Origin: an uncultured Chloracidobacterium sp.
GTDB taxonomy: Bacteria > Acidobacteriota > Blastocatellia > Pyrinomonadales > Pyrinomonadaceae
Length of the DNA stretch: 64,000 nt
Direction of reading: 5' to 3'
Assembly: GCA_964592865.1 (NCBI GenBank)
Contig: CAZQGN010000013.1
Location: forward strand, 11,426-75,425
The notes under the pieces were generated by a model. It saw only the letters and a program-made list of their open reading frames with translations, made no database searches and was not told where the DNA came from. Position numbers and translations under genes: made by a program. The stretch's first letter is position 1. Each line of letters starts with the position of its first letter. Positions 19,532-64,000 of this stretch are shown here, one piece after another.

Positions 19532-19555
19532 CGGTATATTTCCAATTCAAAAAGT

Positions 19556-21973: not shown

Positions 21974-22007
21974 CCTTTCACTTTCCATGTTTTGGTAATA
22001 TTGCACT

Positions 22008-24335
22008 ATGAAGTTTTTGAGCAAGTCGCTATTGGTGGTGTGGACGGCGGTACTGGCGTCGAACGTTTTGGGCGCCGGCGAATACGAAGTATTTAAGTTG
22101 GCCGCCGAGCCGCTGATCCGAATCGGGCTTTCGACCAATGCGTCGTCGGTGTCGATCACCACGGGCGATTCGGCCCTGGTCGCGGTCAGCCCTGATGAGC
22201 AGAGCAAGCTTTTGGCGACTAATAAAATTACCGTCTCAGCGCGTGCCTACCGCCCGCCCGAGGTCGAGAATTATCGTATCGAATTTCAAAATCTGCCGAC
22301 GCAGACCGAGGCGACCACGCTCGCCAGAGAGATACGCGAGGCGACCGGCGAAACGGCGTTTGCGAGCCAGGATACCGCGACGAATACGTGGAAGGTCTGG
22401 GTCGGTGCCATCAAGGATTCGATCATCGAGGCGGACGAACTCAAGTCCAAACTGGCCGAAAAGGGATTTGACGACGCCGTGACGGTCACGGAAAGAAAGA
22501 CCGTGGTGTCGCCGGACGCGATCGCGCTTTCCGAGCAATTAAAGACACAGGGGCCGAGCGATGTCCGCAGTTTGATCAAGCCGACAGGTTCTTCGAACGC
22601 GATCGTGTCAGGCAGCGTCGATCCGAACCTCCGCGAGGTGATCGTCAACGCGCCGGTTGCCGAATCGAGTTTCAGATCGCTCAAATCGGTGGCTTTCGGA
22701 TCGCTGAATGAACGTGCCAATCCGGTTCGGCTCAACGGCAAGGCATATCGCGGCAAGATCGAGGTCTTCGTCAACGCGAAGGGCAGCCTGACCGTGGTCA
22801 ACGTCGTCCCGCTCGAGGAATATCTGCTCGGCGTCGTACCGAGCGAACTCGGGCTGCCGCAGCTCGAAGCTCAAAAGGCGCAGGCCGTCGCCGCCCGCAC
22901 CTACGCGGTCGCGAATATCGGCACCTTTGGCAAGCAGGGATTTGATATGGTCCCGACCGTTTCATCGCAGGTCTATAAGGGCGTGTCGATCGAGACCAAG
23001 ATGGGCACCCAGGCCGTGCGTGAGACCCGCGGGATGGTCGCGACATATCACGGTAAGCCGATAATGGCCTATTACACATCGACCTGCGGCGGCCGGACCG
23101 AAAGCAGCGAGAATATCTTTGACCACGCCGAGCCATATCTTGTCGGAGTGGAATGTTCACTCGAGGGCCGCAGGCATTTTGAACCGTTCATGATCAGGAC
23201 CAGCCGTGTGCCGTCAAAACTGCGCGATGAGGCAAACCTGGAACTTGTTCGGCTGATGTCGATATTGGCCGCCAACGGTTTTCAGCATTCGGGCGGCCAG
23301 ATGACCGACGAGTGGTTCGAAGACGTGCCGACCGAAAGCGAGTTGTCCAATTGGTTAAATAATCTGGCGGTCAAGTTCGGTAAGCCGAATCCGGCCGTGA
23401 ATCGCGATACCGCCAAACCGGCCGAACTCGCCAAGGTCATCGCGAGCCTCATTTACGCTCCCGGATATGCCGACACGATGCTGACCGAGTCGGATATTAA
23501 TTATAATCTGGCGATCGCCGACGCGGCCGAGGTGCCGCGTGAAAGACGTGCCGAGATCGCGTTGCTGCTCCGCGACGGCTATTTTTCGCTTAACGCCGAT
23601 CTGACATTTCGGCCGAATATGCCGCTTTCGCGGGCGAGAATGCTGAGACTTATCCGCAAGATCTTCGACAGGCGCAAATGGATGCCCGAAATGCAGTCGG
23701 CGACCGCCGGCACGAGCGTTGACGGCAAACTGATGCTCCGCAGCGGCAAGACAGATCGGCCGCTGGCGATCCGGCCCGACGTTTTCTTGTTTCGTGAATT
23801 TGGCGGCACCTTTTATCCCGTACGTGAGGTCGCATTGCTCGGCGGCGAAAAGCTGAATTATCAGCTGGACGCACTGGGAGCGGTCAAATACCTGGAGGTC
23901 GAACCGACCGAAACCCCGACCACCGCCGAACGTATGTCGCCCTGGACGCTGTGGAACAAATCAGCGTCCGCCGGCGAGGTTCAGTCGCGGCTGTCGCGGT
24001 ACGTTCGCGGCATCGGGACACTCTTTGACGTAAATATCAAAAAGGTCGGATACTCCCGCCGCCCGATCGAACTTGAGATCGTCGGGTCAAACGGTATCAA
24101 GACGCTCAAAGGCGGCAAGATCCGCTCGGCCCTGCGCCTGCCGGAACAGTTGTTCGTGATGAACAAACGTTATTCGGGCAGCACGGTCGCCAGCTATACA
24201 TTTACCGGCCGCGGTTGGGGCCACGGCGTCGGAATGTGCCAATTCGGGGCCTTTGGCCTGGCAAAAATGGGCGTCAAATACGACGAGATCATCAAGCATT
24301 ACTACACGGGCGTCGAAATTACGAAGTCGTACTGA
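22008..24335 (+). CDS. SpoIID/LytB domain protein with SPOR-like segment
   Basis: SpoIID blocks AVAARTYAV, QVYKG, TRG.V..YHGKPI.AYYTSTCGGRTE and GHGVGMCQFGA. Confidence 0.85.
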   Translation: MKFLSKSLLVVWTAVLASNVLGAGEYEVFKLAAEPLIRIGLSTNASSVSITTGDSALVAVSPDEQSKLLATNKITVSARAYRPPEVENYRIEFQNLPTQTEATTLAREIREATGETAFASQDTATNTWKVWVGAIKDSIIEADELKSKLAEKGFDDAVTVTERKTVVSPDAIALSEQLKTQGPSDVRSLIKPTGSSNAIVSGSVDPNLREVIVNAPVAESSFRSLKSVAFGSLNERANPVRLNGKAYRGKIEVFVNAKGSLTVVNVVPLEEYLLGVVPSELGLPQLEAQKAQAVAARTYAVANIGTFGKQGFDMVPTVSSQVYKGVSIETKMGTQAVRETRGMVATYHGKPIMAYYTSTCGGRTESSENIFDHAEPYLVGVECSLEGRRHFEPFMIRTSRVPSKLRDEANLELVRLMSILAANGFQHSGGQMTDEWFEDVPTESELSNWLNNLAVKFGKPNPAVNRDTAKPAELAKVIASLIYAPGYADTMLTESDINYNLAIADAAEVPRERRAEIALLLRDGYFSLNADLTFRPNMPLSRARMLRLIRKIFDRRKWMPEMQSATAGTSVDGKLMLRSGKTDRPLAIRPDVFLFREFGGTFYPVREVALLGGEKLNYQLDALGAVKYLEVEPTETPTTAERMSPWTLWNKSASAGEVQSRLSRYVRGIGTLFDVNIKKVGYSRRPIELEIVGSNGIKTLKGGKIRSALRLPEQLFVMNKRYSGSTVASYTFTGRGWGHGVGMCQFGAFGLAKMGVKYDEIIKHYYTGVEITKSY

Positions 24336-24589: not shown

Positions 24590-27586
24590 ATGGACCTATT
24601 TAACAAGATCATATCCGGCACAATACTATTTTTGTGCATCGCCGTCTGGTCACCGATCAGCGGCGAATACCGCTTTGATAATTGGACGACCGATAACGGC
24701 CTGCCGCAGAACGGGGTTCGCCAGATCACCCAGACCAAGGACGGCTATCTGTGGTTCACGACCTTCGACGGGCTGGTGAGGTTTGACGGCGTTCGGTTCA
24801 CCACATTTAACAAAAGCAATACCAAGGGCATCATCAACAACCGGTTTACCGGTATTTACGCCGATATCGACGGGGCGATCTACGCCACGACGATGGAGGA
24901 CGGCATCCTGACGATCTACCGCGACGGCGCGTTTACATCGCTCACGTCAGATGAGGTGCCGGGCCATTATATTGCTAAGATCCGGCGCGAACCGGGCGGC
25001 GAACTGCGGTTTTTGGTCGAGGACGAGGACCGCACCACCAAGAGTTGGTATCGGCTCGTCGGGCGGGCGTTCGAGTTTATCGAGCGGGAGGACGAGTCGG
25101 CCGAACCGCTGGTCGTCAACGGCAAACTCGGCAGTGTCTGGAGCGTCAATCAGAGCGGTGTGACCGAAACAAAGAACGGAGCCACTTTCTATACGCCTCT
25201 CGACCTGACTGGCTATAAGCTCAAGCCCAATCTTTTTGAGGACAATGCCGGGACCCTTTGGGTCGGCGAAAACCGCGTCCATCATATCCGCGGCGGCAGG
25301 ATCCGCACGTTTGACCAGAAGGACGGACTTGTCATCAATTCGATCTATCACTCGTTTTGGGAAGAACCTGACGGCAGCGTCTGGCTCGCGTCGGGCGGAG
25401 GTTCGAGTACGACCGTCGGCCTGGTGCAGATCAAGGACGACGCGGTCACGCTGTGGGGAAGCAGTTTTGGCCTGACCGCCATGTCGATCCAGGACATTTT
25501 CAACGATCGCGAAGGCACGACCTGGCTGGCGACCGACCACGGACTCTATCGGCGCCGAAACGCCGCGATCCGAAGCTACAGCAAGAAGGACGGGCTCGGC
25601 CATTCCGAGGTTTACCCGATCTATCGCACGCGGAGCGGCGACGTATGGATCGGGACGTCAAAGGGGATGAGCATCTATCGCGACGGCGTGTTCAAGCCGT
25701 ACGATATCCGGGCCGCCATTCCGGACGGGCCGAGGAACACGACGTGGGAATCGGGCCGAATGTCCATCCAGTCGATATTTGAAGACGATCAGGGAAAGAT
25801 GTGGGTCGGCATCAACGGCGGCATTTTTCTGGTCGAGAACGGCATCGCCAGGAACCTGATCACCGACTGCCACGTCTTTTCGATCAAGGGCGACCGCAGC
25901 GGCAATGTATGGGCGGCGACCAACAAAGGCATTTACCAGTTTAATGACTACAAGGTCACGAAACTCTACAACGTCAAGGACGGATTGCCGAACGAGTTCA
26001 TGACGCTCGTATTCGAGGATTCGAAGGGCTCGATGTGGTTCGGCGGTTACGGCGGCCTCAGCAAATTTGAGAATGGCCGGTTCACGAACTACACGACCAA
26101 GGAAGGCCTGACAGGCAATTATGTAAGGGCCATATACGAAGACAAGTCGGGTACATTCTGGATCGGGACGTACGACGAAGGAATGAGCCGTTTCAAGGAC
26201 GGCAAGTTCGTAAACTATAAGGAGACCGACGGCCTTTACAACAGCGGCGTCTTTGCGATCGAGGAGGACGCGGCCGGGTTCTTCTGGATCAGCTCAAATC
26301 GCGGCATCTATCGAGTCAACCGGACCGAACTGGACGATTTTGCCGCGGGCAGCATCAAGCGGATAAACAGCGTCGGCTACGGCAAAGAGGACGGAATGCT
26401 CTCGACCGAGTGCAACGGCGGGCGTCAACCGGCGAGTTTTCGCGCGGATGACGGTAAGTTCTGGTTTCCGACGCAGGATGGCATCGCGGTCGTCGACCCG
26501 CTTTCAGAAAGATCAAACCCGATGCCGCCGACGGTCGTGATCGAAGATATGTCGGTCGAGCGGTCGCCCGTCGATTTTCGCAACGGAATAAAGATCGAAG
26601 CCGGTAAAAAGGACATCGAGATCCGTTACACCGGCATCAGCCTGATCAAATCGGAACAGATCAAGTTTCAGTACAAACTCGACGGTTATGACGATGACTG
26701 GGTCGAGGCCGGTACGCGCCGGACGGCGTTCTACTCGTATCTGCCGCCGGGCAATTATACGTTTCGGGTCCGGGCGGCCAACAGTTACGGCGTTTGGAGC
26801 AGTAACGACGCTGAGATCGGCATCGAACTCGCCCCGTTCTTTTATCAAACGACACTCTTTTACCTGGTCGCCGCTCTGGTGGTCCTGCTTATCCTGCTGG
26901 TGATCTGGAAGATCAGCTTTTATCAGTTGGTCGATAAGGAGCGCAAGCTCAAAAAGCTGGTGGCTGAACGAACCGCCGAACTCGCCTGGGCCAACGAGCA
27001 TTTAGAGAGCCTTGCCAATTCCGACGGGCTGACCAAGATCGGCAATCGCCGCCGCTTTGAGAGCTTTTTGGCGGATGAATGGCATCGGGCGATCAGATTT
27101 CGCACCGAGATATCGCTGGCGTTGATCGACATCGATCACTTCAAGCTATTTAACGATACATATGGACATCAGGCGGGTGACGATTGCCTGCAGCGGGTGG
27201 CACAGGCCTTTGCCGATACGCTCAAGCGTCCGACCGACCTGGTCGCACGTTTCGGCGGCGAGGAATTTGCTCTGATATTGGGCGGGACCGACGCGGCCGG
27301 AGCACTTACGATCACCGAGGAAGCGGTTCGCAGCGTCGCGGCTCTGGGCATTCGCCACAGCGGGTCGAGTACGTCCGACATTCTTACGGTCAGCGTCGGA
27401 TTGGTCACGATGCGGCCTGTCATCGGAATGACCGAAGACCGCCTGATCAGCACCGCCGACCGGGCACTCTATCAAGCCAAGAAACGCGGCCGAGATCAGA
27501 TCGTCGTTATCGAAGACCTGTCCGCCGGCCCGGTCGCGGCCGGATTTCACCTGCCGGGCGACGGATACGATTCGCACGTCAACTAG
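24590..27586 (+). CDS. Periplasmic beta-propeller/Y_Y_Y sensor diguanylate cyclase (GGDEF)
   Basis: Repeated two-component-regulator propeller motifs (DG.LW..T..GL), a Y_Y_Y-type domain, one TM helix and a C-terminal GGDEF domain with RFGGEEF. Confidence 0.85.
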   Translation: MDLFNKIISGTILFLCIAVWSPISGEYRFDNWTTDNGLPQNGVRQITQTKDGYLWFTTFDGLVRFDGVRFTTFNKSNTKGIINNRFTGIYADIDGAIYATTMEDGILTIYRDGAFTSLTSDEVPGHYIAKIRREPGGELRFLVEDEDRTTKSWYRLVGRAFEFIEREDESAEPLVVNGKLGSVWSVNQSGVTETKNGATFYTPLDLTGYKLKPNLFEDNAGTLWVGENRVHHIRGGRIRTFDQKDGLVINSIYHSFWEEPDGSVWLASGGGSSTTVGLVQIKDDAVTLWGSSFGLTAMSIQDIFNDREGTTWLATDHGLYRRRNAAIRSYSKKDGLGHSEVYPIYRTRSGDVWIGTSKGMSIYRDGVFKPYDIRAAIPDGPRNTTWESGRMSIQSIFEDDQGKMWVGINGGIFLVENGIARNLITDCHVFSIKGDRSGNVWAATNKGIYQFNDYKVTKLYNVKDGLPNEFMTLVFEDSKGSMWFGGYGGLSKFENGRFTNYTTKEGLTGNYVRAIYEDKSGTFWIGTYDEGMSRFKDGKFVNYKETDGLYNSGVFAIEEDAAGFFWISSNRGIYRVNRTELDDFAAGSIKRINSVGYGKEDGMLSTECNGGRQPASFRADDGKFWFPTQDGIAVVDPLSERSNPMPPTVVIEDMSVERSPVDFRNGIKIEAGKKDIEIRYTGISLIKSEQIKFQYKLDGYDDDWVEAGTRRTAFYSYLPPGNYTFRVRAANSYGVWSSNDAEIGIELAPFFYQTTLFYLVAALVVLLILLVIWKISFYQLVDKERKLKKLVAERTAELAWANEHLESLANSDGLTKIGNRRRFESFLADEWHRAIRFRTEISLALIDIDHFKLFNDTYGHQAGDDCLQRVAQAFADTLKRPTDLVARFGGEEFALILGGTDAAGALTITEEAVRSVAALGIRHSGSSTSDILTVSVGLVTMRPVIGMTEDRLISTADRALYQAKKRGRDQIVVIEDLSAGPVAAGFHLPGDGYDSHVN

Positions 27587-52388: not shown

Positions 52389-54146
52389 CTATCGTGCGAG
52401 CTTGCGCCTGATCATGCCAAATGCCTGCTCCAGTTCCTTCACACGCAGCAGTTTGGCGACTATCACAAACGTAATGCCGCCGAGGGCGATCGGGACAAAT
52501 GCCTCGATCAAGTGATGTGCGAGCGTCGCCGAACCGAGCCGTACGTGAAGCAAATAGTAACTGGCATAACACGCCGCCGACATAAAGAGCGATGCGGCGG
52601 AAATTCGCAAAAATGATGCCGCGACCTCACGGCCGTTCAGCCGCTTGATCTTGCGCCGCATGAACCAGACCAGTGCGACAAAGTTGATCAGGGCAACGCA
52701 CGAGGTCGCCAGAGCGACGCCGACATGGCCGTAACCGTGCGGTGTGGCGGCCGTTACGCCGTATTGCGAGAGCCATTCGCGAAAAAAATAACTCCCGAGA
52801 GCGTTGACGCCGATCGAGGCGACGCCGATGATCATCGGCGTTTTGGCGTCGTTCATCGCGTAAAACGCCGGCGACAGCACCTTGATCGCCGCATAGCCGG
52901 CCAGGCCGACCGAGTATCCCGCGAGGGCAAACGCCGTCATTGTAGTGGCGGTCGCGTCAAACTTACCATGCTCGTAGATCAGCCGAACGATCGGTTCGCC
53001 CAGCACTATCAGGCCGCAGGCCGCAGGGATCGTCATCAAAAAGACGAGATTCATCGACTGTGACAGCGTGTCGCGAAAATCCTTCGTCCGGCCCTCACTT
53101 GCGAGTCGGGACAGCACGGGGATCGCCGCCGTCCCGATCGCGACGCCGAACAGCCCGATCGGAAACTGCATCAGCCGAAAGGAATAACTTAGCCAGCCCT
53201 GAGCTCCGTCGATGCCCGAGACGAAATAGGTGTTAATGAGGACGTTGATCTGGACCGCGGACGTCCCAAGGATGGCGGGCGTCATCAGCGCCATTACTCG
53301 TTTGAGGCCCTCGTCCGCAAAACTCAATGTCGGCAAAAAGCGAAAGCCGACCTTGTAGAGCGACGGGATCTGCATCAAAAATTGTGACGCTCCGCCGATC
53401 AAGGTTCCGATAGCCATGCCGATTATCGCCCATTGCGCCGCCGCTCCGGGAACGGCGTCCTTGTCCGTCGAACTGAACCATCCGCCGCCGCTTAGCCAGT
53501 ATGCAAGCCCGAGGCCGAAAATTATCGAGACGATGTTAAAGACCGTCGAGGCCGATGCCGGGATCCCGAATACGCCCTTGGTATTGAGTACGCCCATTGC
53601 GACCGCCGCCAAAGCGACGAGCAAAATGAACGGGAACATTATCTGCGTCAGCGTTGTCGCAAGCGCCGCCTTTTCAGGCGAAAAGCCATCAGCCACGAGG
53701 TCGACGAATTGCCGTGAAAAAATTACGCCGACGATGCAGATCACGCTCATAATGACCGCGAGGGCGTTAATGACAAGGCCGGCCAGATGCCAGGCTTCCT
53801 TTTCACTCTTGTTTATCTGGTAGTCGGTGAAAACCTTGACGAACGCCGCCGAAAGGGCACCTTCGGCGAAAAGGTCGCGGAGCACGTTCGGTATTCGAAA
53901 CGCCACGACGTAGGCGTCGTAAAGAAACCCGGCGCCGAAGAAAAAGGCGAATATCTGCTCCCGGATCAGCCCAAGAATACGCGAGAACATCACCGCGATC
54001 GATACGATCCCGGCTGATCGAGCGACACTCGTTTGTTTTGTCGACGGGGCAGGCCCGGCTTCGTCAGCTATGTCGTCAGCGTCGTCAGGTTCGGCCAGTG
54101 ATTCCGGCGATTCGGCAGTAGGTTGGTCCTCGATGATCTCACTCAT
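52389..54146 (-). CDS. murJ: Lipid II flippase MurJ
   Basis: MviN/MurJ N-terminal pattern SR.LG..RE...A..FGAG...DA...AFR.PN..R..FAEGA.S.AF. Confidence 0.85.
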   Translation of the reverse strand: MSEIIEDQPTAESPESLAEPDDADDIADEAGPAPSTKQTSVARSAGIVSIAVMFSRILGLIREQIFAFFFGAGFLYDAYVVAFRIPNVLRDLFAEGALSAAFVKVFTDYQINKSEKEAWHLAGLVINALAVIMSVICIVGVIFSRQFVDLVADGFSPEKAALATTLTQIMFPFILLVALAAVAMGVLNTKGVFGIPASASTVFNIVSIIFGLGLAYWLSGGGWFSSTDKDAVPGAAAQWAIIGMAIGTLIGGASQFLMQIPSLYKVGFRFLPTLSFADEGLKRVMALMTPAILGTSAVQINVLINTYFVSGIDGAQGWLSYSFRLMQFPIGLFGVAIGTAAIPVLSRLASEGRTKDFRDTLSQSMNLVFLMTIPAACGLIVLGEPIVRLIYEHGKFDATATTMTAFALAGYSVGLAGYAAIKVLSPAFYAMNDAKTPMIIGVASIGVNALGSYFFREWLSQYGVTAATPHGYGHVGVALATSCVALINFVALVWFMRRKIKRLNGREVAASFLRISAASLFMSAACYASYYLLHVRLGSATLAHHLIEAFVPIALGGITFVIVAKLLRVKELEQAFGMIRRKLAR

Positions 54147-54288
54147 TGGTCAGGTTGGGATTATCGCACGCAGAGGCGAAATACAAAAGCAAACCGGCGC
54201 TCGATAGGCGCCAAAAGGCGCGCGTTCGCGGCGGGCCTTGCTATGGGCCGACCAAGCGAGATCTCTAACAAGTCATTACCTGTACAGT

Positions 54289-55659
54289 TTACTGGCGTTG
54301 GTTGGGATAACTTATCCGCGTTCTTGCTATCCGGCTGTCGAGAGACGTCGGCGAGTACGCGATCGGGGCCGGGCCGCCAAATTGATTTTGGACGAGCGAG
54401 ACAAAGCTATTTTGAAATGCACGGAAACGGGCCACCGCTCCGCGTTGGTTAAAGATCACAAACAGGAACTTGCCGTTTCGGGTATTCAGTTCACCGGCCA
54501 GCGTGCTGGCGCCGCCGTCGGTGTTGGGCAGCGTCCCTGTTTTGCCGATCACGCTGCCGGTCGCAAAGTCTGAGTCGAAGCGGTTTTCAAGCGTGCCCTT
54601 GTCGATGCCCGCGACCGGCATAATGTCGGCGAATGTCATTTTGTATCGGGCCAGGTCGTCCTTCAAAACCCTGAGCAGACGCATCATCGCATTTGGCGTC
54701 ACGCGGTTGTAGCCAAGCCCGCTCGATGTCTGGAGCGAAAACTCGACCGGCTGTATGCCGGCATTCAGCTGCACGATGCGAGCAACGGCATAAGCACCGC
54801 CGAGCATATCGCCGAGCCGCTCGGCCAAAAAGTTGTTCGAATAACAAAGCGTGACCTTTAGGATCTCGCGCATCGGGGCCGATTCATGCGTGAATAGCAG
54901 GCTCAGGCTGCTCGGGATCGGCTGGACATAAAACGCCCCGGTGAAAGTCACGCCGGGCGTACCCTGAACCTCGCCAAAACGGCCTGAGTTTGAAAGGTAA
55001 TTTAGCCAAACGCGCGTCGCGGCGGCCGAACGTTTATTCGCGTCCATAGCCGCAAACAGTGTCTCGGCCGACTTGAGCGAAGAACCCGAGTAGTTCATCG
55101 CAAAATTATCGGTCGCGATCAGATCGCCGTTTATCGTGCGGATGCCGAGCCGGTTGAGTTCGTAGGCGATAGCGACCGCGTGCTCAAAACCGAACATCGG
55201 GTCACGGCCCGAAACATAAAGATTACCGTTGAGCGTCCCCGTCGAGCGGTCGAACGACCCGTCCGTATAGACGCTGGTCATAAAACGGAAATCCGGGCCG
55301 AAGGTCTTGAGAACAGCGTACGCGGTGGCGATCTTGACGTTCGACGCGGGATTAAAAGCCGCAGTCGAGTTGCTTTCGACCACTACATTGCCGTCCATCG
55401 ATTCGATCAGGATGCCTGAATATCCGGGCACAGCCACTTCGGCAAGCGCCGGGAATTTTGTCCGTATTCCGCCCGAAACCGGCGTCGAACTTCCGGTTCG
55501 CTGGACGAAGGGCGTGGCGGTCGGCACCGGCACCGGGTCGCGATAGATCTTGATGTCCTGAAGCAGCGGCGGCGTCTGTCCGGTTGCCGAAAGGGCGGCC
55601 GAAAGTATCACGATCAGCAGACTAAAATGCCATTTTAACTGTCTCAGGTGTCTTTTCAT
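54289..55659 (-). CDS. dacB: D-alanyl-D-alanine carboxypeptidase/endopeptidase (PBP4, S13)
   Basis: SxxK (PASNVK), SxN (YSNN), KTG (GKTGTL) and a signal peptide. Confidence 0.8.
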   Translation of the reverse strand: MKRHLRQLKWHFSLLIVILSAALSATGQTPPLLQDIKIYRDPVPVPTATPFVQRTGSSTPVSGGIRTKFPALAEVAVPGYSGILIESMDGNVVVESNSTAAFNPASNVKIATAYAVLKTFGPDFRFMTSVYTDGSFDRSTGTLNGNLYVSGRDPMFGFEHAVAIAYELNRLGIRTINGDLIATDNFAMNYSGSSLKSAETLFAAMDANKRSAAATRVWLNYLSNSGRFGEVQGTPGVTFTGAFYVQPIPSSLSLLFTHESAPMREILKVTLCYSNNFLAERLGDMLGGAYAVARIVQLNAGIQPVEFSLQTSSGLGYNRVTPNAMMRLLRVLKDDLARYKMTFADIMPVAGIDKGTLENRFDSDFATGSVIGKTGTLPNTDGGASTLAGELNTRNGKFLFVIFNQRGAVARFRAFQNSFVSLVQNQFGGPAPIAYSPTSLDSRIARTRISYPNQRQ

Positions 55660-55897: not shown

Positions 55898-58405
55898 TTA
55901 TTGCAGCTGCTGCAGCTCGGCGACATCGTCAAATCGCCGCATTGGCTGGCGGATCATCGATTCGTTCTTGAGGTAAGAACACAGGTCCGAAAAATTCATC
56001 GGGGCGGCGAACAGGTAGCCCTGCCCGTATTCACAGCCGAGCGATCGCAGCGTGTTGAGTTGCGTTTCGGTCTCGATCCCTTCGGCGACGACCTGCAGGT
56101 CAAGGGTTTTTGCCAGCGTTACGATCGCACGAACGATCTCGTCGTTTCCGCCCTTGTCGTTGATCATATTGACGAACGAGCGGTCGATCTTTAGCGTGGT
56201 GATGGGGAGTTTCATCAGGTAGCTGAGATTTGAGTATCCCGTACCGAAATCATCGATGTTGATGTCGATCCCCGCGTCCCTCATCTGTTTGAGCATCTCT
56301 ATCGCCCTTGCCTGATGTTCGACAAAGACGCTTTCCGTTATCTCGAATTTAAGCAAATGCGGTGAGAATGAGTTTTCTTCGAGGATGCGCTCGATGTTGC
56401 GCACGAGCGATACCTGGGCAAATTGTTTGCACGAAAGATTGACGCTGAGTTTCGGCTTTTGGCCCTCGGGCATCACGTCCTGGATCGTACGGATCTCACG
56501 GCACGAGATCTGAAGAACATATTCGCAGAGGCGGTCGATCATTCCGATCTCCTCCGCGACGGGAATGAACTTGCTCGGCGAAATATTACCGAGTTCCGGA
56601 TGATTCCATCGGGCAAGCGATTCAAAACCCTCGATCTGGTCAGTTTCTAGCGAGTATATCGGCTGATAGACGACCGATAGTTCGGAACGTTCGATCGCGC
56701 GTCTCAGGTCGGTCTCGATCCGCAGAGTCTCGCGCGCGGCCTTAAACATTTTTTCGTCAAAAACCTCGTGGCGGGCCTTTCCGGCCCGTTTGGCCTGATA
56801 CATCGCGGTATCGGCGTCGCGCATTATGTCCTCGGACGTGCGGTGGCCCGACGAAGCGTGAAGAATGCCGATGCTGGCGGAACTGTAAACCTCGTTGCCG
56901 TTCAGTTCAAAGGGGATCCCGAATTTTGCCTGGATACGTTCGGCGATACGCGTGACCTCTTCGTCAATGTGGGTGCCCTCGACGAGGATAGTAAACTCGT
57001 CACCGCCGAGGCGAGCCACGAGGTCCGACGGCCGGAGACACTCGCGGAGCCTTTCGGAAATACCCATCAGCAGCATGTCGCCAGCCAGATGTCCGAGACT
57101 GTCATTTACGTATTTGAAGCGGTCGAGGTCAATAAACAGGATGCTGACCCGATAGTCTGGCGACAATTGGCGACGCTCAAGGGCCGATGTCAGACGAGCC
57201 ATGAACAGCGGGCGGTTCGGCAGGCCGGTCAGGGCGTCGTGGGTCGCTTCGTGCTGGAGTTTCTCTTCGGCGACCTTTTTGTGGGTGATGTCCTGGATCT
57301 GGAAGATCAGTCTCTGGTTCTCGACATTTCCGTCGCCGGCAGCGGAGACACTCCACGATGCCCACACGACGTCGCCGTTCTTATGAAAATAGCGGTGTTC
57401 CAACTGACAGCTCGCGATCTTGCCGGAGATCAGTTCGTGGAGTTTTACGAGCGTCGGGCCAAGGTCGTCCGGAACGATCATCGACTGAAAGTCCCGGGCC
57501 AAAAACTCCTCTTCCGAAAAACCGAGTATCTCGGTCAGGGCCCGGTTGACCTTGAGCCACGATCCGGTCGAACTGACGAGAGCAATGCCGATCGGGGCAT
57601 AGTTGAACGCACTTCGAAACCGCTCTTCGGACTCGCGCAGGGCGTCCGACTGAGCCTCCATCACCTTGGCGTACTGTTCCGCCTGTTCCGCCTGTTGGAT
57701 CGAGATCTCGACGTTCTTCATATACATCCTGTAGGAAAGATATACAAAGACCATCACCGGAAATGTAGCGAAGATAATACCGACGCCGATCGTGTCGGCG
57801 AGCTGGATCAGGATGCCTGCCCCGGCCGCGCCCACAAAGTACGAGAAAAATGTCCAAACGTATTTGGACTTCCAGGTTTCCCAGACCGGCAGGCCGCTCT
57901 TCAAGGCGTCATAGACGGTCGCGATCGCTGTATTGGCGACAAATTGTGCCAGGGCAATGACCGACAGTGCGATCACAAAATTTGCACGGTTATTCGTGTG
58001 TCCGTGGAAGATCTCCTCCTGATAAAGCGAAAGATAATTGAGTGTCACCACGACGAGCGATGTCGATACTGCCATCGTCGCGGCGTTGAAAAAGACGGTC
58101 AGCTTTTTGTTGCAAAATCGCCACGAGGAGCAAAAAGCCTCAAGCGCGGCGAGAATTATCGCAAATTCGCCTCCGTAAAGCAGCAATGTCAGGAATATGA
58201 ATGTGTCCGAGACTGCAATGTGCGATTTGAATCGCGGAATGGGGATCGTGATCCGCGACCCGAGCACGATCGTCAGGATAGCGAGCAGCATCAGGTAACC
58301 GTCCACCCGCTCGGTCGGCATCGTAAGACCCGCGGCGGCCAGGCAAGCCCCTCCGGCGAAGATGACGATCGAAATGTACCAGGCTGTAAGTCTCTTGCTG
58401 TTCAT
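55898..58405 (-). CDS. Membrane-anchored PAS-GGDEF-EAL c-di-GMP turnover protein
   Basis: About 6 TM helices at the N-terminus, a PAS segment, RLGGDEF, an EAL domain (ESLARW, DDFGTGYS, KID) and QGY.F. Confidence 0.85.
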   Translation of the reverse strand: MNSKRLTAWYISIVIFAGGACLAAAGLTMPTERVDGYLMLLAILTIVLGSRITIPIPRFKSHIAVSDTFIFLTLLLYGGEFAIILAALEAFCSSWRFCNKKLTVFFNAATMAVSTSLVVVTLNYLSLYQEEIFHGHTNNRANFVIALSVIALAQFVANTAIATVYDALKSGLPVWETWKSKYVWTFFSYFVGAAGAGILIQLADTIGVGIIFATFPVMVFVYLSYRMYMKNVEISIQQAEQAEQYAKVMEAQSDALRESEERFRSAFNYAPIGIALVSSTGSWLKVNRALTEILGFSEEEFLARDFQSMIVPDDLGPTLVKLHELISGKIASCQLEHRYFHKNGDVVWASWSVSAAGDGNVENQRLIFQIQDITHKKVAEEKLQHEATHDALTGLPNRPLFMARLTSALERRQLSPDYRVSILFIDLDRFKYVNDSLGHLAGDMLLMGISERLRECLRPSDLVARLGGDEFTILVEGTHIDEEVTRIAERIQAKFGIPFELNGNEVYSSASIGILHASSGHRTSEDIMRDADTAMYQAKRAGKARHEVFDEKMFKAARETLRIETDLRRAIERSELSVVYQPIYSLETDQIEGFESLARWNHPELGNISPSKFIPVAEEIGMIDRLCEYVLQISCREIRTIQDVMPEGQKPKLSVNLSCKQFAQVSLVRNIERILEENSFSPHLLKFEITESVFVEHQARAIEMLKQMRDAGIDINIDDFGTGYSNLSYLMKLPITTLKIDRSFVNMINDKGGNDEIVRAIVTLAKTLDLQVVAEGIETETQLNTLRSLGCEYGQGYLFAAPMNFSDLCSYLKNESMIRQPMRRFDDVAELQQLQ

Positions 58406-58510: not shown

Positions 58511-58546
58511 AAAAGGCAAAAGCCGGGCCCGTCATTCGAGCCCAGC
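58511..58546 (-). terminator. Rho-independent terminator after GNAT copy 1
   Basis: On the minus-strand RNA: GCUGGGCUC-gaaugac-GGGCCCGGC (9-bp stem with two G:U pairs), followed by UUUUGCCUUUU. Confidence 0.6.
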
Positions 58547-58586
58547 TTATTATGCCTTAATTAAACATTGTTGTCCACTGTTATTT

Positions 58587-59492
58587 TTAGACGAACAACG
58601 TCACGCATTTGTCAGTAGCGCGGTATCCGGCCTTCTGAAAGCTCTTGTGAGCTCCCGCAAAATTGACGTTGCTTAGAAGGCAGATATGTTCTGCACGGCT
58701 GAGCAGTTCGAGCGTCAAGGCCGCGAGACATTTTGAGCCGATCCCGTTCCCACGAAACTCGGGTGCGACCCAGACGCCTTCGAGATAAATGACGTCAGGC
58801 GTCTCAGCAATAATATCTGCCTTGAATGCCAGTTTGCCATCGATCTTGACGCTGAATACACGTCCCATTTCGATGCGGCGCAGGACACGCTTGAGAAAAC
58901 CCTCGCGATCCCGAGCCATCGGATCAACACCGCATTCGATGAACGCGACCTCAGCCTGGGCTTCAGCGAGTTCGACGAGGTCGGCAGCGTTAGCTGTCTC
59001 GACGTTCCATTCGCATTTTTGGACGGCGAACGGAAATGCGGTCTCAAAGAGGAGTTCTTCACAGCGAAGTCGCGGGGCGGCGGCTGTCGTTGTGTAGCTG
59101 CTCCAGAATCGTTCGGCAGCGTCGCCGGACGACATTATCAGGTGGATCGGCCGGGCCGAGGTGCGGGCGGTAAATGCCAGTGCCTCGATGGCCTTTTCAG
59201 TACGGGCCTCGAACAGTGTCGAGTGTCCGATGAGTCCAACTCCCTCCAGTCTTCCTGCTTCATTCCTATAACCGTAGAATGTTCCTCGGTTGAGTTCGGT
59301 ATCGAAACCGTTGTCATGAATGAAACTCGTCATTACGACCGTGTGGACCGGGCGTTCCGCCAGGAACGCTAACGTCTCGGTACGCGATGATTCGTCGAGC
59401 ATAAAGACCCGCGAGAGGTCGGGCACAATGCCCAAGCTCCTGGTGTGCGGTACTGCGACTGTCGCAGTGCTCATTTGTGATTGGCGTAACAT
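58587..59492 (-). CDS. Two-domain GNAT-family N-acetyltransferase (copy 1)
   Basis: C-terminal GNAT core with the acetyl-CoA motif FRGNGIGSK. An N-terminal ~130-aa domain precedes it. Paralogue of 62405-63313. Confidence 0.75.
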   Translation of the reverse strand: MLRQSQMSTATVAVPHTRSLGIVPDLSRVFMLDESSRTETLAFLAERPVHTVVMTSFIHDNGFDTELNRGTFYGYRNEAGRLEGVGLIGHSTLFEARTEKAIEALAFTARTSARPIHLIMSSGDAAERFWSSYTTTAAAPRLRCEELLFETAFPFAVQKCEWNVETANAADLVELAEAQAEVAFIECGVDPMARDREGFLKRVLRRIEMGRVFSVKIDGKLAFKADIIAETPDVIYLEGVWVAPEFRGNGIGSKCLAALTLELLSRAEHICLLSNVNFAGAHKSFQKAGYRATDKCVTLFV

Positions 59493-59539
59493 TTTGGTTC
59501 TCCGTATTTTGATCGTGTAATTGTTTCAGTTGGCTGCGA

Positions 59540-62149
59540 CTACATCGAAGGCGTTGGATCGCCAAGTAATACGCTGTCACCTATCAATACGCCATCTCCT
59601 ACGAGAACACCGTCGCCGACGAGCACGCCGTCACCGATCAGAACACCGTCGCCGACGAGTACGCCGTCACCGACCAGAACACCGTCGCCGACTAGCACGC
59701 CGTCACCGACCAGAACACCGTCGCCGACTAGCACGCCGTCACCGACTAGCACGCCGTCACCGACCAGAACACCGTACGACAACCAGATCGAACCGGCACC
59801 GAGGGCACCGCCGTTACTCGTCGTAACATTGCGGTTTACGCCTAGCCCTGCAGTAAAGAACGCGCCCGTGTTGAGCGAAAAGTTGCCGTTTGAGAACCGA
59901 ACACCATCGCTGATGATGTTTTCACGTTTGTAAGCGGCCTGGAATTTTGAAACAAGGTCCGCGCCGGTAACCATTGTGTGGTTGCCGGTGATCATCTGAG
60001 CCCACTGGAAAGTATTGCCGCCGATCGTTGTCGAGGTCGTCGGCATGGTCCAGCCGGCCGGGACAGTCGACGAGCCGTTTGCCGCCGTCTGGAAGTCGAT
60101 ATCCGTGCGGAGCGAGCGAGCCAGCCGAACCGCACCTTCGATATTCAATGCACCCGCACCCTGTTCAAAGGTATTGGCACCTGAGACCGGGCGGGCCGAA
60201 TACTGCATGATCATTTTGATCATTCCCGGCGTGAGGTTCGGATTGACCTGCAGCAAGAGTGCCGCCGCACCGGCTACGACCGGAGCCGACATCGACGTGC
60301 CGCTCATGTACATCATCGAATCATTGTCATTCGTCAGATCGAGTGACAGCGACGGGTTGAGCAATGCCATTCGATTGCTCGGAGCCTTGTAGGACACGAG
60401 GCGGTTACCCGGAGCAACGATGTCGGGCTTGATGATGTTGTCAAACACTTTCCAGCCGGTTGATGTGGTCAGGAAGCTGCGTGTCGGGCCCCGCGAGCTG
60501 AAGCTCGAGATCGTATCGTCAGCAGTCGTCGTTGTTCCCATCGAATTGCTCGATCCGACCGTCAACGCATACGGGCTGATGCCGGGCGAGTGAATACGGC
60601 CATAGGTCTTGGCACCGGTTGCGGTCTTTCCGAGGTTACCCGCGGCAACGACCACGACGATCCCTGCCTGGACCAACTCCTTGACCTTGACGCAGATCGG
60701 ATCGTTGCGATACGAATCGACCGCCGTCGTGCCGAGGCTGAGGTTTGCCACTTTGATGTTGTACTGGACGCGATTCTGAAGGATCCAGTTCAGTCCGTTG
60801 AGGAGCCAGGACGAACTGCCTTCGCCAAGATCGTTAAGTACCTTGACGCTGACGATCTTGGAGTTTCTCGCGACGCCGCGATACGCACCGCTTTGTTTAT
60901 TTGAATCGCCCGCAGCAAGTCCGGCAACGTGCGAACCGTGGCCGTAGCCGTCGGTCGTCGCCGTCAGGGTGCCGCTCGTAAAGTTGACATTAGCGACGAG
61001 ACGCGAGGTGCCACCGCTGGACTTGTAACCGTTATGGTTTGAGGCGATGCCCGAATCGACAATAGCGATACCGATATCGGAACCGTCGAGATTGTAAGCA
61101 GCACGTCCATTGAGTGCCGGCTGTGAGCGGACCAGGTCCGCACCGATCGACTCTTCGACATGGCCGGTCACTGTTGTCGGGCGATCAGGCGAAATGAAGT
61201 TGATGAGGCCGCTTTTCGAAAGCGAATCGAGTGCTGAAAGCGGCAAATTGACGACGATCGTCTCGGTATTGCCGATGCGATCGGTCACACGGGCCTCGCC
61301 GGACTTGAGCAATGAGCGAAGTGCGGCATTGTCGGCGTCCTTGGCCTGGATGATGACATCGACGCGGGTCTTGCCGGTCGGGTCATTCGCCATCATTTCG
61401 CGAAGTTCCGATGAGATATTGTCACCGGCATAACCGTCGCCACTTACAACACTGGCTTCCGTATTGTTCGCTTGGCCCGAAATGATGATGCCCTCGAGTG
61501 CGATCGCCTGAAAAACACCGGCGAACGCTTCGGATCGCTCGATCTTTTCAGCATAGCTCACGCGGGTCGACCCGCCGATGATCGCAAGTTTGCCCGAGGT
61601 GATAGCTCCGAGCAACTGTTCGCCGACCGCCTGCGACTCAAGCAGGTTGGCAATCTCGTTAACGTAAAGGACAGTCTGCTTTCCGGAAGCGGACACCTCA
61701 TTAACGATCGTCCCGATCAGGTCTGTGACCTCCGCATCGGACTTGGCGTTCGAATACAACGCTGCGACCTCAAGTTTGACCACAGAAATGCCCTTCAGAC
61801 TGTCAGGCACGTTCCCGGCGGCAATGCGGCGGGCAACCTGCTCAACAACGGCATCCTGATTCTCGCCCGTGTTATCAACGATAACCGGCTGGCGAAGTCC
61901 ACCTTCAGCTAACACTTTGACGAGACGCGAAGTCTCGCTTTCAAAGTTCAGGTTCTCTCGCAGTCTTCCATTACGGCCAAGCTGCGTAAGATCGGTGGTA
62001 TATTTCGCTGTCGCCGATGCATTGTTGACCGTCTGCGGCGTAAGTGCGGCAAAGGCCGGCACCGCGTTGGTCACCAAGATCGACAACATAAGCACCAGCG
62101 AAACCGCCGTCCTTATGGTCAATATTTTGGTCTTAGACAAACTCATCAT
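59540..62149 (-). CDS. Exported S8 (subtilisin-like) serine peptidase with an N-terminal degenerate ClpB-like AAA+ module and a C-terminal (GDGVLV)12 array
   Basis: Signal peptide ...AVPAFA|A. Catalytic triad contexts IAIVDSGI, GHGSHVAG and GTSMSAPVVAG. See findings for the other modules. Confidence 0.85.
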   Translation of the reverse strand: MMSLSKTKILTIRTAVSLVLMLSILVTNAVPAFAALTPQTVNNASATAKYTTDLTQLGRNGRLRENLNFESETSRLVKVLAEGGLRQPVIVDNTGENQDAVVEQVARRIAAGNVPDSLKGISVVKLEVAALYSNAKSDAEVTDLIGTIVNEVSASGKQTVLYVNEIANLLESQAVGEQLLGAITSGKLAIIGGSTRVSYAEKIERSEAFAGVFQAIALEGIIISGQANNTEASVVSGDGYAGDNISSELREMMANDPTGKTRVDVIIQAKDADNAALRSLLKSGEARVTDRIGNTETIVVNLPLSALDSLSKSGLINFISPDRPTTVTGHVEESIGADLVRSQPALNGRAAYNLDGSDIGIAIVDSGIASNHNGYKSSGGTSRLVANVNFTSGTLTATTDGYGHGSHVAGLAAGDSNKQSGAYRGVARNSKIVSVKVLNDLGEGSSSWLLNGLNWILQNRVQYNIKVANLSLGTTAVDSYRNDPICVKVKELVQAGIVVVVAAGNLGKTATGAKTYGRIHSPGISPYALTVGSSNSMGTTTTADDTISSFSSRGPTRSFLTTSTGWKVFDNIIKPDIVAPGNRLVSYKAPSNRMALLNPSLSLDLTNDNDSMMYMSGTSMSAPVVAGAAALLLQVNPNLTPGMIKMIMQYSARPVSGANTFEQGAGALNIEGAVRLARSLRTDIDFQTAANGSSTVPAGWTMPTTSTTIGGNTFQWAQMITGNHTMVTGADLVSKFQAAYKRENIISDGVRFSNGNFSLNTGAFFTAGLGVNRNVTTSNGGALGAGSIWLSYGVLVGDGVLVGDGVLVGDGVLVGDGVLVGDGVLVGDGVLVGDGVLIGDGVLVGDGVLVGDGVLIGDSVLLGDPTPSM
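59558..59773 (-). repeat. 12 tandem 18-bp units encoding G-V-L-[VI]-G-D
   Basis: Counted from the translation (GVLVGD x7, GVLIGD, GVLVGD x2, GVLIGD, SVLLGD). The units differ at synonymous positions. Confidence 0.95.
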
Positions 62150-62287
62150 TTTTGCTCCTCAAAAACGCGTGTCCTTTTTCTCGAACACCAAAGAAATATG
62201 GCAAATGTCGCCGCCCTTTAATATCAATGCGTGTGCCACAACCGTAAGTCTATTAAATTCACTAGTTAGCATATTACGGTGATGTGA

Positions 62288-62320
62288 ATTCGGTCATTCT
62301 GGTTTTCAGATTGACCGAAT
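62288..62320. promoter_or_regulatory. Inverted repeat ATTCGGTCA-N15-TGACCGAAT upstream of the S8 gene
   Basis: Perfect 9-bp arms. A further TGACCGATGACCGG lies at 62334-62347. Confidence 0.3.
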
Positions 62321-62345
62321 GGCAATGTCAATCTGACCGATGACC

Positions 62346-62375
62346 GGAAAAAAAGAGGGGGCCGTTAGGCCCCCG
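62346..62375 (-). terminator. Rho-independent terminator after GNAT copy 2
   Basis: Minus-strand stem GGGGGCC-uaac-GGCCCCC followed by UCUUUUUUU. Confidence 0.8.
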
Positions 62376-62404: not shown

Positions 62405-63313
62405 TCAGACAAAAAGCGTCACGCATTCGCCGGTCCGGTCAAAGCCGGCTTTTTCGTAGCTGCGATGGGCCGCATCAAAATCGACGTTGCTGAGCAGACA
62501 GATATTGGCGACACGGCCGAGCAGCTCGATCGACAGTTTGCCGAGGCACCGCGAGCCGACGCCCTGTCCGCGATGATCCGGATGGACATAAATGCCCTCG
62601 AGATAGATCGTCTGGTCCGTCTCGGCAATGATATCGGCCTTAAAGATCAGCTTTCCATCCTGGTAAACCGTGAAGATGCGGCCTTGATCGATCCTGCGGG
62701 CGACCCGCTTTAAGAAACCGTCACGGTCACGCTGCATCGGGTCGACGCCGCATTCTATGAAGGCGATCTCGGCCTGTGCGGCGGCGACCTGTTCGAGCTG
62801 GGCCATATTGGCGTTGTCGATATGAAATTCACACACCGGCACTGCCATCGGCAGTCTGGCTTCAAATAACGCCTCGACACAGGTCAGGCGCGGCTCCGAA
62901 GTCCCTCCGGTCAAATATTGATGAAATCGTTGGGCATCGCTGCCGTTCGACATTATTAGGTGTATCGGCGTAGAACTTCGGCGTGCCGCGATCGCCAGAG
63001 CGGTAAGGGCATCTTCGGTTCGGGCCTCGACTAGTGTCGAGTGTCCGATCAGGGCGATACCCTCAAGTTCGCCGGCAGCGTTTCGGTAGCCGAAAAACTC
63101 GCCTCGATGCAACTCGCTGACCATGCCGTTGTCGAGGATAAAGCTCGTCATCACAACGGTTTGCACCGGCCGCACCGCCAGGAACGACAGTGCTTCGCGG
63201 CGGTCCGCTTCAGTCAGGCAACCGACTCGCCCGGATGCCGGTACTTCAACGAGTCGCCTGATCGAGGCCGAGTTGTCAGTGTGCGGTCTAATTTCCGCTA
63301 TATTCTGCAACAT
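62405..63313 (-). CDS. Two-domain GNAT-family N-acetyltransferase (copy 2)
   Basis: Collinear with copy 1 along its whole length, including the shared C-terminus CVTLFV. Acetyl-CoA motif HRGQGVGSR. Confidence 0.75.
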   Translation of the reverse strand: MLQNIAEIRPHTDNSASIRRLVEVPASGRVGCLTEADRREALSFLAVRPVQTVVMTSFILDNGMVSELHRGEFFGYRNAAGELEGIALIGHSTLVEARTEDALTALAIAARRSSTPIHLIMSNGSDAQRFHQYLTGGTSEPRLTCVEALFEARLPMAVPVCEFHIDNANMAQLEQVAAAQAEIAFIECGVDPMQRDRDGFLKRVARRIDQGRIFTVYQDGKLIFKADIIAETDQTIYLEGIYVHPDHRGQGVGSRCLGKLSIELLGRVANICLLSNVDFDAAHRSYEKAGFDRTGECVTLFV

Positions 63314-63359: not shown

Positions 63360-64000
63360 TTATTTCATTGCCGCGGTGTTGTCCCCGGTGATCTCGACCT
63401 TATTTGCCAGCGACGTTGTCACGTCCCCAACAAGCACGCCGTCACCAACCAGGACACCATCTCCGACCAAAACACCGTCGCCGACCAGAACGCCGTCACC
63501 GACGAGCACTCCGTCGCCGACCAGGACGCCCGAGGCCATCATTACGGTTCCGCCGCCCATCGCCGTGCCGTTGCTCGTCAGCACATTCTTGAACATCGTG
63601 ATGCCCGTTCCAAACCAGGAATTGAGCGACGGGTTGTTCGAGGCGTCATAACTGACGCCATCCTCGAACCAGAAATAGTTGGCGTATGCCTGATGGTACT
63701 TGTCGGCAAGCGACTGGCCCTTGAGGTAGGTCGCGTTGGTGAGAATGCCCTGGGCCCACGGGAATGTAGTTCCCGCGATCGTGCTGGTCGCGACCGGAAA
63801 TGCCTGGCCGGACTGCAATAGGCTGGTACCCTGAGCGTAGTCGTTAAAGTCAGTATCGAACTTGTACGTCCGCCCGATCTTGATCGCACCGTCGATGTTC
63901 AACTGCCCGGCGCCCTGCTCCAGCATATTTACACCGTTCAGCGGTTGAGCCGAATATTCGAGGATCATCTTGACCATCGTCGGGGTCAGCTTCGGATTCA
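63360..64000 (-). CDS. S8-peptidase paralogue, C-terminal part only (5' end beyond the window), with a (GDGVLV)6 array
   Basis: Alignable to the C-terminal ~200 aa of 59540-62149 (EQGAG.LNI.GA, TF.WAQ, LTSNG). The frame is open to the window edge. Confidence 0.8.
   Translation of the reverse strand, partial: NPKLTPTMVKMILEYSAQPLNGVNMLEQGAGQLNIDGAIKIGRTYKFDTDFNDYAQGTSLLQSGQAFPVATSTIAGTTFPWAQGILTNATYLKGQSLADKYHQAYANYFWFEDGVSYDASNNPSLNSWFGTGITMFKNVLTSNGTAMGGGTVMMASGVLVGDGVLVGDGVLVGDGVLVGDGVLVGDGVLVGDVTTSLANKVEITGDNTAAMK
63423..63530 (-). repeat. 6 tandem 18-bp units encoding GVLVGD
   Basis: Counted from the translation ASGVLVGD(GVLVGD)5. Confidence 0.95.

Follow-up and report, generated by a model that had tools for sequence, protein, structure and literature searches.

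AAA+ (ATPases associated with diverse cellular activities)/P-loop domains are archetypal cytoplasmic, nucleotide-driven modules; what, then, could one of them do behind an export signal in a subtilase? The question is raised by an open reading frame (ORF) of 869 amino acids at positions 59540–62149 (minus strand) of a 64,000-nucleotide stretch of DNA from an uncultured Chloracidobacterium sp. (GenBank assembly GCA_964592865.1, contig CAZQGN010000013.1, positions 11,426–75,425), which we refer to as the window. In an initial annotation, part of the encoded protein was taken for an ATPase fold that had been co-opted by a subtilase as a module working outside the cytoplasm and without ATP. Homology, motif loss, the layout of the signal sequence and the pattern of selection uphold this interpretation for a module that would be exported and would not bind ATP. 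The single ORF encodes a pre-pro-subtilase composed, from the N- to the C-terminus, of a signal peptide, a pseudo-ClpB domain (the large subdomain of nucleotide-binding domain 1, NBD1), a linker, a propeptide, a peptidase S8 domain, a middle domain and a hexapeptide tail, and the coordinates of these parts given below all refer to the minus strand. The annotated segment, 61496–62005, corresponds exactly to residues 49–218, the pseudo-ClpB module, and the five sequence blocks quoted for it are all found verbatim in the protein. The ATG at 62149 is preceded, at a spacing of 5 nt, by the Shine-Dalgarno sequence GAGGAG (62155–62160, read from the sequence).

A phmmer search of residues 34–240 against the PDB retrieved 46 Clp/Hsp100 NBD1 chains and no other significant matches. 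The best were Plasmodium ClpB NBD1 (2p65; E = 1.2e-21) and M. tuberculosis ClpB (6dju; E = 3.9e-20), followed by T. thermophilus ClpB NBD1 (E = 2.1e-19) and that of E. coli (1jbk; E = 2.8e-19), with Hsp104, ClpA and ClpC ranking next; the alignments are all collinear over ~175 residues. In NCBIfam, the ClpB profile TIGR03346 matched residues 40–219 (E = 8.4e-23) over its positions 149–334, which are exactly the NBD1 large subdomain. Pfam is too insensitive for this module, for which searches against the PDB or NCBIfam profiles are needed: on the module alone it gave only the sub-threshold matches YqgF (E = 0.029) and NBD_SMAX1 (E = 0.048), residues 1–355 contain no above-threshold Pfam match, and the only such matches in the whole protein are Peptidase_S8 and the C-terminal hexapeptide repeats. 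An AlphaFold2 model built from 46 family sequences has predicted local distance difference test (pLDDT) scores above 90 across residues 45–218. When this model was compared with the PDB by Foldseek, a check that the initial annotation had proposed, ClpB NBD1 and Hsp104 came out on top (E = 1.5e-14, root-mean-square deviation 1.7–2.4 Å, 172–180 aligned columns), with template modelling (TM) scores relative to the target of 0.83–0.86 for 1jbk, 4hse and 2p65 and of 0.86 for 1jbk. Residues 49–218 are genuinely homologous to the large subdomain of NBD1 in ClpB/Hsp100 proteins, with the AAA+ alpha/beta core fold by prediction, and the ClpB likeness first noticed from the sequence alone greatly exceeds chance in three independent comparisons, by profile, sequence and structure. 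The Clp homology stops at residue 218–219 and gives way to a disordered stretch and then to the propeptide, leaving no lid subdomain; neither an M-domain nor an NBD2 was detected in the 869-amino acid ORF using Pfam and NCBIfam.

The residues on which ATPase activity depends were then compared column by column in an alignment of 71 full-length relatives with three ClpB NBD1 sequences. In the Walker A motif, or P-loop (residues 92–99; 61853–61876), the sequence G-E-P-G-V-G-K-T of ClpB has become D-E-(D/K)-(G/K)-(E/A)-(V/N)-Q-(D/E/N) in the family and DNTGENQD in the query, which departs from the GxxGxGK[ST] pattern of functional AAA+ ATPases. The column of the Walker A lysine (position 98) contains Gln in 64 of the 71 relatives and Lys in none, and neither the Walker A Lys/Thr nor a glycine-rich loop is present in any of the >80 sequences examined; the replacement described by the initial annotation for the query therefore extends to all 71 relatives. 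Its description of the Arg fingers (RR to GV) is likewise correct, the family having A/G followed by L/Y/F at these positions, as is that of sensor-1, where the Thr of ClpB is S or T in the family. The pore loop KYRG is replaced by K/R-S/T-x-A, with S/T in place of Tyr, and the adenine-contacting segment DPVIGRD by RENLSFE. The Walker B strand (residues 160–165; 61655–61672) requires a more differentiated view. The query sequence VLYVNE does not conform to hhhhDE, and the annotated change of DE to NE holds for the query and a minority of relatives, but most relatives have ILFVDE, with D in 47 and N in 21 of the 71 sequences at position 164 and E in 60 at position 165. The length of the former P-loop is unchanged from ClpB, and one block, T51–E70, is better conserved in the family than in ClpB itself. 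Because the determinants have been lost and there is no ATP outside the cytoplasm, the module would be unable to use ATP. In addition, the absence of the Walker A Lys/Thr, Arg fingers, pore-loop Tyr, N-domain, lid, M-domain and NBD2 means that it is not an ATP-driven disaggregase.

This combination is not peculiar to the window. A word-indexed search with residues 1–350 yielded 61 relatives (E = 1e-208 to 1e-33), with Pyrinomonadaceae, 'Chloracidobacterium sp.' metagenome-assembled genomes (MAGs) and Aridibacter as named sources, and the first true Clp protein appeared only at E = 2.5e-16. A scan of one genome per GTDB species identified 362 stretches that encode a relative. The best 80 of the 362 are all from Pyrinomonadaceae, Pyrinomonadales, Blastocatellia or Acidobacteriota MAGs, and the family appears to be confined to the Pyrinomonadaceae/Blastocatellia; one locus (L001) shows 96% identity to the window. 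Full-length orthologues of 840–900 amino acids with the same order of parts are present in ~65 species genomes, and nearly all of the full ORFs finish with GDGVLV repeats and LLGD(D/N)TPxM(Q). When 1.84 billion representatives were searched exhaustively with the module by phmmer, 30 clusters reached E ≤1e-30. The best 150 representative hits comprise 71 with an intact GxxGxGK[ST], in which the domain lies at ~residue 160 or later as in real Clp proteins, and 79 without it, nearly all of which have the domain at ~residue 50 after a hydrophobic N-terminus. Most of the metagenomic homologues among P0001–P0061 stop short or run into meaningless frameshifted sequence; the probable causes are indel errors and the breakage of assemblies at the 18-bp repeat encoding the tail, and the true architecture is visible only in genome loci. 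The relatives are named 'S8 family serine peptidase' or 'AprX' in the databases. For two of them, P0047 and P0181, which are fragments with only the signal peptide and the module, one source gives the name 'ATP-dependent Clp protease ATP-binding subunit ClpA/ClpB'; these labels are misannotations caused by the module, which thus explains ClpA/ClpB names on protease fragments.

Where the module came from is indicated by a sister group, which we call clade B, the query belonging to clade A. Clade B (P0108, P0113, P0118, P0124, P0161, P0162, P0170, P0185, P0230, P0231, P0233, P0234 and P0244; Pyrinomonadaceae where named) shares the overall architecture but has a far more ClpB-like module, with typical blocks such as ILFVDEFH and MGATT. 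The module of P0118 matched ClpB NBD1 4hse in the PDB at E = 8.5e-43, and it scored higher on the NCBIfam ClpB profile (185 bits, E = 2.7e-54) than on ClpV (169 bits), which was followed by ClpK, ClpG and ClpA. Based on this ranking, ClpB is the most likely donor of the module, and ClpB is also the best-scoring Clp class for the query. Clade B reads as an evolutionary intermediate that documents the descent from ClpB, and the graded series that leads from ClpB to clade A (E = 1e-21) by way of clade B (E = 1e-43 to 1e-54) constitutes an unusually clear record of the passage from enzyme to pseudo-enzyme. The clade B modules inspected also lack the GKT, the Arg fingers and the pore-loop Tyr, and their former P-loops (GESGADAAAV, GESGLARNAV, AEPGSVPAAV and others) are unlike the acidic loop of clade A. 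Because the loop is wholly different between the two clades, it appears to have drifted after the loss of function and would not form a conserved ligand site.

The comparison of the clades bears directly on the possibility that the module binds a nucleotide or another phosphate ligand in a non-canonical manner and, as a sensor outside the cytoplasm, controls the step of activation. Such a role would fit the Walker B D-E kept in most relatives, the conservative T-to-S change at sensor-1 and the preserved length of the former P-loop. However, it is very unlikely given the lack of Lys/Thr and of a glycine-rich loop in >80 sequences, the acidic character of the loop in clade A and its unrelated sequence in clade B, the missing lid subdomain and Arg fingers, and the replacement of the adenine-contacting DPVIGR by RENLSFE. 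A Ca2+ site composed of the acidic pseudo-P-loop (D-E-D-x-E-x-Q-D) and the Walker B D/E was also considered, and is weakened by the unrelated loop of clade B.

Related loci also contain module-less S8 paralogues of ~700 amino acids, consisting of a signal peptide, a propeptide (KIAPDLEE...), the S8 domain and the same kind of tail. In a rough neighbour-joining tree of the propeptide and S8 domain (no bootstrap), the module-bearing clades group together and apart from these paralogues. This pattern suggests that the module was inserted only once, and with domain precision, between the signal peptide and the propeptide. Several loci (L010, L011, L013, L014, L020, L025 and L047) carry side-by-side arrays of two or three S8 paralogues with and without the module, and these arrays provide natural comparison pairs for its contribution.

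Could the inserted domain nevertheless be a decaying, functionless relic of a fusion, or an artefact of assembly or annotation? All of its catalytic motifs have been lost and many database copies are truncated or frameshifted, as would be expected in that case. The conservation data argue strongly against it. Mean pairwise identity over the 71 proteins is 0.54 in the module, whereas it falls to 0.26 and 0.21 in the stretches that flank it, namely a variable segment rich in Ser, Thr and Ala that leads from the signal peptidase site to the module (residues 35–48; 62006–62047; pLDDT <50) and a disordered, hypervariable linker (residues 219–241; 61427–61495; pLDDT 31–35 in two AlphaFold2 models). 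The values for the propeptide, S8 domain and middle domain are 0.71, 0.67 and 0.54, respectively. Against four close orthologues, the Nei-Gojobori ratio of non-synonymous to synonymous substitution rates (dN/dS) is 0.06–0.14 for the module and 0.04–0.08 for the S8 domain. The module is under strong purifying selection. Together with its confident predicted fold, the identical boundaries seen in ~65 complete ORFs of different species and in 362 genomic stretches, and the fact that the truncations spare the module and fall at contig ends or at the 18-bp repeat near the C-terminus, this leaves hardly any weight for a relic or an artefact.

On which side of the membrane does the module reside? The N-terminus of the query, MMSLSKTKILTIRT / AVSLVLMLSILV / TNAVPAFA↓ALTP (residues 1–34; 62048–62149; assigned from its heuristic layout), has an n-region with a +3 charge, a hydrophobic h-region and an A-x-A c-region. 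The canonical signal peptide with an AFA↓A site that the initial annotation had proposed therefore has the expected tripartite layout, and a heuristic scan found the layout kept in 73 of 75 relatives, with n-region charges of +1 to +4, a median Kyte-Doolittle value of 2.5 over 12 residues and small-x-small (A/V-x-A) sites. Many other signal-bearing proteins with the same degenerate module, for which the annotation had suggested a search, thus exist, and the module starts at ~residue 50 in the relatives. A cleaved Sec signal seems to be the best reading, with an uncleaved signal anchor as the main alternative. In the latter case, the protein would be held on the outer face of the cytoplasmic membrane, and the module would be a membrane-proximal spacer or stalk until autoprocessing. 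AlphaFold2 draws a single continuous helix over residues 6–33, albeit with low confidence, the hydrophobic stretch and c-region together span ~22 residues, and a spacer would tolerate a variable P-loop. However, small-x-small motifs (AFA, VFA, AVG) follow an h-region of 12–14 residues in nearly all relatives, which is the signature of signal peptidase I, and a dN/dS near 0.1 is not expected of a mere spacer; we therefore consider an anchor unlikely. With either a cleaved signal or an anchor, the module would be located outside the cytoplasm.

Two other export routes were examined and rejected. A large sub-clade of relatives (L013, L017, L023, L026, L053 and many more) has TTRRFAAIAILASF at the boundary of the n- and h-regions (residues ~10–30), with a twin arginine that is faintly reminiscent of the twin-arginine translocation (Tat) system. 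Should the proteins of this sub-clade be exported by Tat, their module could be folded already before it crosses the membrane. One sub-clade has TTRRFAAIA, but the query has LTIRTAVSL and others have K or S-K; the twin arginine is not conserved, and Tat export was therefore discarded. Secretion of the type I secretion system kind through the Gly/Asp-rich C-terminal repeats was rejected as well, an N-terminal signal peptide being present and only ~9 residues following the repeats.

The remaining parts of the protein are those of a subtilase precursor. Residues 242–325 (61175–61426; identity 0.71) are predicted to form the beta-alpha-beta-beta-alpha-beta fold of a subtilisin-type propeptide, which starts with a near-invariant GDNxSxDLRxMM helix; the assignment is based on predicted fold. 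In a Foldseek search with the full-length model, the best matches were to pro-subtilases in their unprocessed form, namely ProN-Tk-SP (3afg; E = 5.8e-27, 466 columns) and pro-subtilisin E (3whi), with 437–466 aligned columns for the two structures. The Pfam I9 model does not respond to the propeptide that the initial annotation had called 'I9-like'. The catalytic domain (residues 356–666; 60152–61084) matches Peptidase_S8 (PF00082) at E = 1.2e-46, with 159.8 bits against a cut-off of 21.8, and its D365, H404 and S619 are invariant in 53 sequences, in keeping with the intact D/H/S triad that had been annotated. It is followed by a beta-rich middle domain (residues 667–790; 59780–60151; AlphaFold2 strands with pLDDT 73–94), for which a Pfam search gave no match, and by a C-terminal tail (59543–59779; Pfam Hexapep, E = 2e-10) composed of ~12 perfect GDGVLV hexapeptides and the conserved end LLGDPTPSM. 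The tail is common to all full-length relatives, where its terminus is LLGD(D/N/P)TPxM(Q); the tail is also present in the module-less paralogues, where it terminates in LGDNTxCMLPAP. It might form a left-handed beta-helix or serve in trimerisation or sorting. The linker and the tail were left unmodelled in the full-length AlphaFold2 prediction (tail pLDDT 31–40). The hexapeptides are encoded by an 18-bp DNA tandem repeat (59571–59775), a second copy of which is located at 63422–63530, and a plus-strand ORF over the repeat (59521–59826; 101 amino acids, rich in RRRHRPEH) is its reverse-strand reading and not a gene.

The position of the module relative to the propeptide bears on its possible role. 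Subtilase propeptides are cut at their C-terminal junction, as in subtilisin BPN'/E and Tk-SP. Since the module lies N-terminal to the propeptide, a cut at the propeptide/S8 junction means that it would leave the mature enzyme together with the propeptide. For this reason, a role in the pro-region is favoured, and the suggestion in the initial annotation that the module might be a substrate-binding platform of the mature protease is disfavoured, as canonical autoprocessing would split it off. The module descends from the large subdomain of NBD1 of a ClpB-type Hsp100 chaperone, which was taken up exactly at its domain boundaries (ClpB ~positions 150–335) and placed between the signal peptide and the propeptide. 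For the protein so formed, we propose the following course of events. The pre-pro-enzyme would be exported by Sec, and the signal peptide would be cut after AFA. The module, tethered to the propeptide by the ~23-residue disordered linker, would then fold in the ATP-free space beyond the cytoplasm and serve there as a structural domain that needs no nucleotide. It may assist the folding or the solubility of the exported chain, or tune the binding or survival of the inhibitory propeptide and hence latency, until an autocatalytic cut at the propeptide/S8 junction releases the module and the propeptide as one pro-fragment of ~31 kDa. That the module is an ATP-independent accessory of the pro-region in folding, solubility or latency, and not a motor, is a reading to which we give about an even chance.

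Several observations weigh against this proposal. The module-less paralogues evidently mature without the module, indicating that it is not needed for the folding of this type of protease in general. A role in folding or latency has no structural support from AlphaFold2, in which the packing of the module against the propeptide or the protease is not confident (predicted TM scores 0.54 and 0.58), and Pfam I9 had no match in residues 241–350 even at E up to 1. The Walker B D-E kept in most relatives is left unexplained by a purely structural role. Finally, export, signal cleavage, the autoprocessing site and the lack of nucleotide binding are all features that we infer.

Some of these data would be accommodated if the module had a job of its own outside the cell, either after release or while tethered, for example as a binding or oligomerisation platform towards the envelope, a polymer or other subunits. 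It resembles a self-contained domain strung on a disordered linker, and no contact with the protease is predicted; purifying selection on it (dN/dS 0.06–0.14) matches that on the enzyme in strength; the block T51–E70 is conserved beyond ClpB, which suggests an interaction surface; and the paralogues fold without it. On the other hand, no partner or ligand is identifiable, and clades A and B differ in the loop that once served the nucleotide. In AAA+ proteins, rings are built by the lid and by the Arg fingers, both of which are missing from an NBD1 large subdomain on its own. An independent job is accordingly possible, although somewhat doubtful. After autoprocessing, the fragment of module and propeptide might even persist as a separate factor, extracellular or periplasmic, and be either an ATP-independent holdase or timer that sets the time and place of activation for a whole family of Pyrinomonadaceae proteases, or a binding module that localises them. 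We put this forward tentatively, as an outcome that we do not expect; if true, the pseudo-ClpB domain would be the first AAA+ fold of bacteria to function extracytoplasmically and free of nucleotide.

How unusual, then, is this architecture? A search of the literature returned no description of a signal peptide–pseudo-ClpB–propeptide–S8 arrangement. The module resembles NBD1 of ClpB and Hsp104 (1jbk, 4hse and 2p65) in its collinear ~175 residues and predicted alpha/beta fold, and its domain boundaries match those of the isolated ClpB NBD1 fragments that have been crystallised; it differs from them in being preceded by a signal peptide and fused to the pro-region of a protease. Torsins reside in the lumen of the endoplasmic reticulum with the degenerate AAA+-like partners LAP1 and LULL1. 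These partners, which supply an Arg finger to the active protein, show that AAA+-like domains can serve structural or regulatory purposes without a nucleotide; in contrast, our module has no Arg finger and no known active AAA+ partner, consists of a single large subdomain and is fused to a protease. Torsins and Plasmodium HSP101 likewise combine a Clp/Hsp100-type fold with a signal peptide and a non-cytosolic location. Both are active ring-forming ATPases in ATP-containing compartments, whereas the module would operate in a bacterial extracytoplasmic setting without ATP. HSP101 of the PTEX translocon is an exported eukaryotic Hsp100 (PMC7355975). The statement in the initial annotation that AAA+ domains are normally cytoplasmic must therefore be qualified by these eukaryotic exceptions, but we found no bacterial one. 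Another case of a Clp-derived NBD in non-chaperone use is plant SMAX1/D53 (NBD_SMAX1, PF23569), whose Pfam model scored 13.8 bits on the module against a cut-off of 27 (E = 0.048) and is precomputed on several relatives; SMAX1 proteins are, however, full-length double-NBD nuclear proteins with neither an export signal nor a protease fusion.

On the protease side, Tk-SP (3afg) and pro-subtilisin E (3whi) have a signal peptide, a pro-region with a beta-alpha-beta-beta-alpha-beta propeptide and an S8 domain, as predicted for the query. In B. subtilis WprA, the pro-region gives rise to a stable protein, CWBP23, so that a large fragment of this kind outlasting its cleavage has a precedent. None of these three pro-regions contains a domain derived from an AAA+ or P-loop protein, and the GDGVLV hexapeptide tail is particular to the query family. 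Subtilase biology gains a new type of pro-region accessory domain. Stripped of its nucleotide-binding residues, placed behind an export signal and strongly selected in hundreds of species, the bare NBD1 scaffold must have a useful property that is independent of nucleotides, which this family offers a natural opportunity to discover. Since Pyrinomonadaceae abound as degraders of protein in soils and in wastewater plants, from which the MAGs originate, the control of their exo-proteases is of ecological and possibly biotechnological interest.

The genomic neighbourhood of the gene is partly duplicated. The S8 gene is followed, 47 bp from its 3' end, by a gene for a GNAT (GCN5-related N-acetyltransferase)-like protein of 301 amino acids (58587–59492, minus strand; Pfam Acetyltransf_7/1 on residues 203–297), a probable operon partner that lies immediately 3' of the module-bearing S8 gene in most of 80 related loci (L001–L080). 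This two-gene unit is tandemly duplicated in the window (58587–59492, 59540–62149, 62405–63313 and 63360–64000, all minus strand), and each unit ends at a strong hairpin terminator (62357–62374 and 58520–58548); that closing the unit described here (58520–58548, minus strand) resembles an intrinsic terminator, with a 12-bp stem and a T-run. A candidate sigma-70-like promoter (62296–62325, minus strand), which is only a weak match (9/12 in a consensus scan), precedes the S8 gene and lies just 3' of the preceding unit's terminator. In L001, the upstream S8 copy also contains a pseudo-ClpB module, with 46% identity. In both GNAT-like proteins (58587–59492 and 62405–63313), the fold is recognisable only in the last ~100 of ~300 residues, the first ~200 residues matching nothing in Pfam, NCBIfam or the PDB, and the partner offers no clue that ties it to the module.

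More widely, the neighbourhood is rich in envelope and peptidoglycan functions, with genes for a MurJ flippase, an S13 D-Ala-D-Ala carboxypeptidase, an M14 carboxypeptidase-like protein and a SpoIID/SPOR protein at 52389–55659 (minus strand) and 19220–24335 (plus strand), to which no link of the module has been established. Directly 3' of the unit lies a gene for an 835-amino acid protein (55898–58405, minus strand) in which a membrane domain of several helices at the N-terminus precedes PAS, GGDEF and EAL domains, an arrangement that points to the turnover of cyclic diguanylate (c-di-GMP). A second GGDEF protein, with a Reg_prop/Y_Y_Y sensor, is encoded at 24590–27586.

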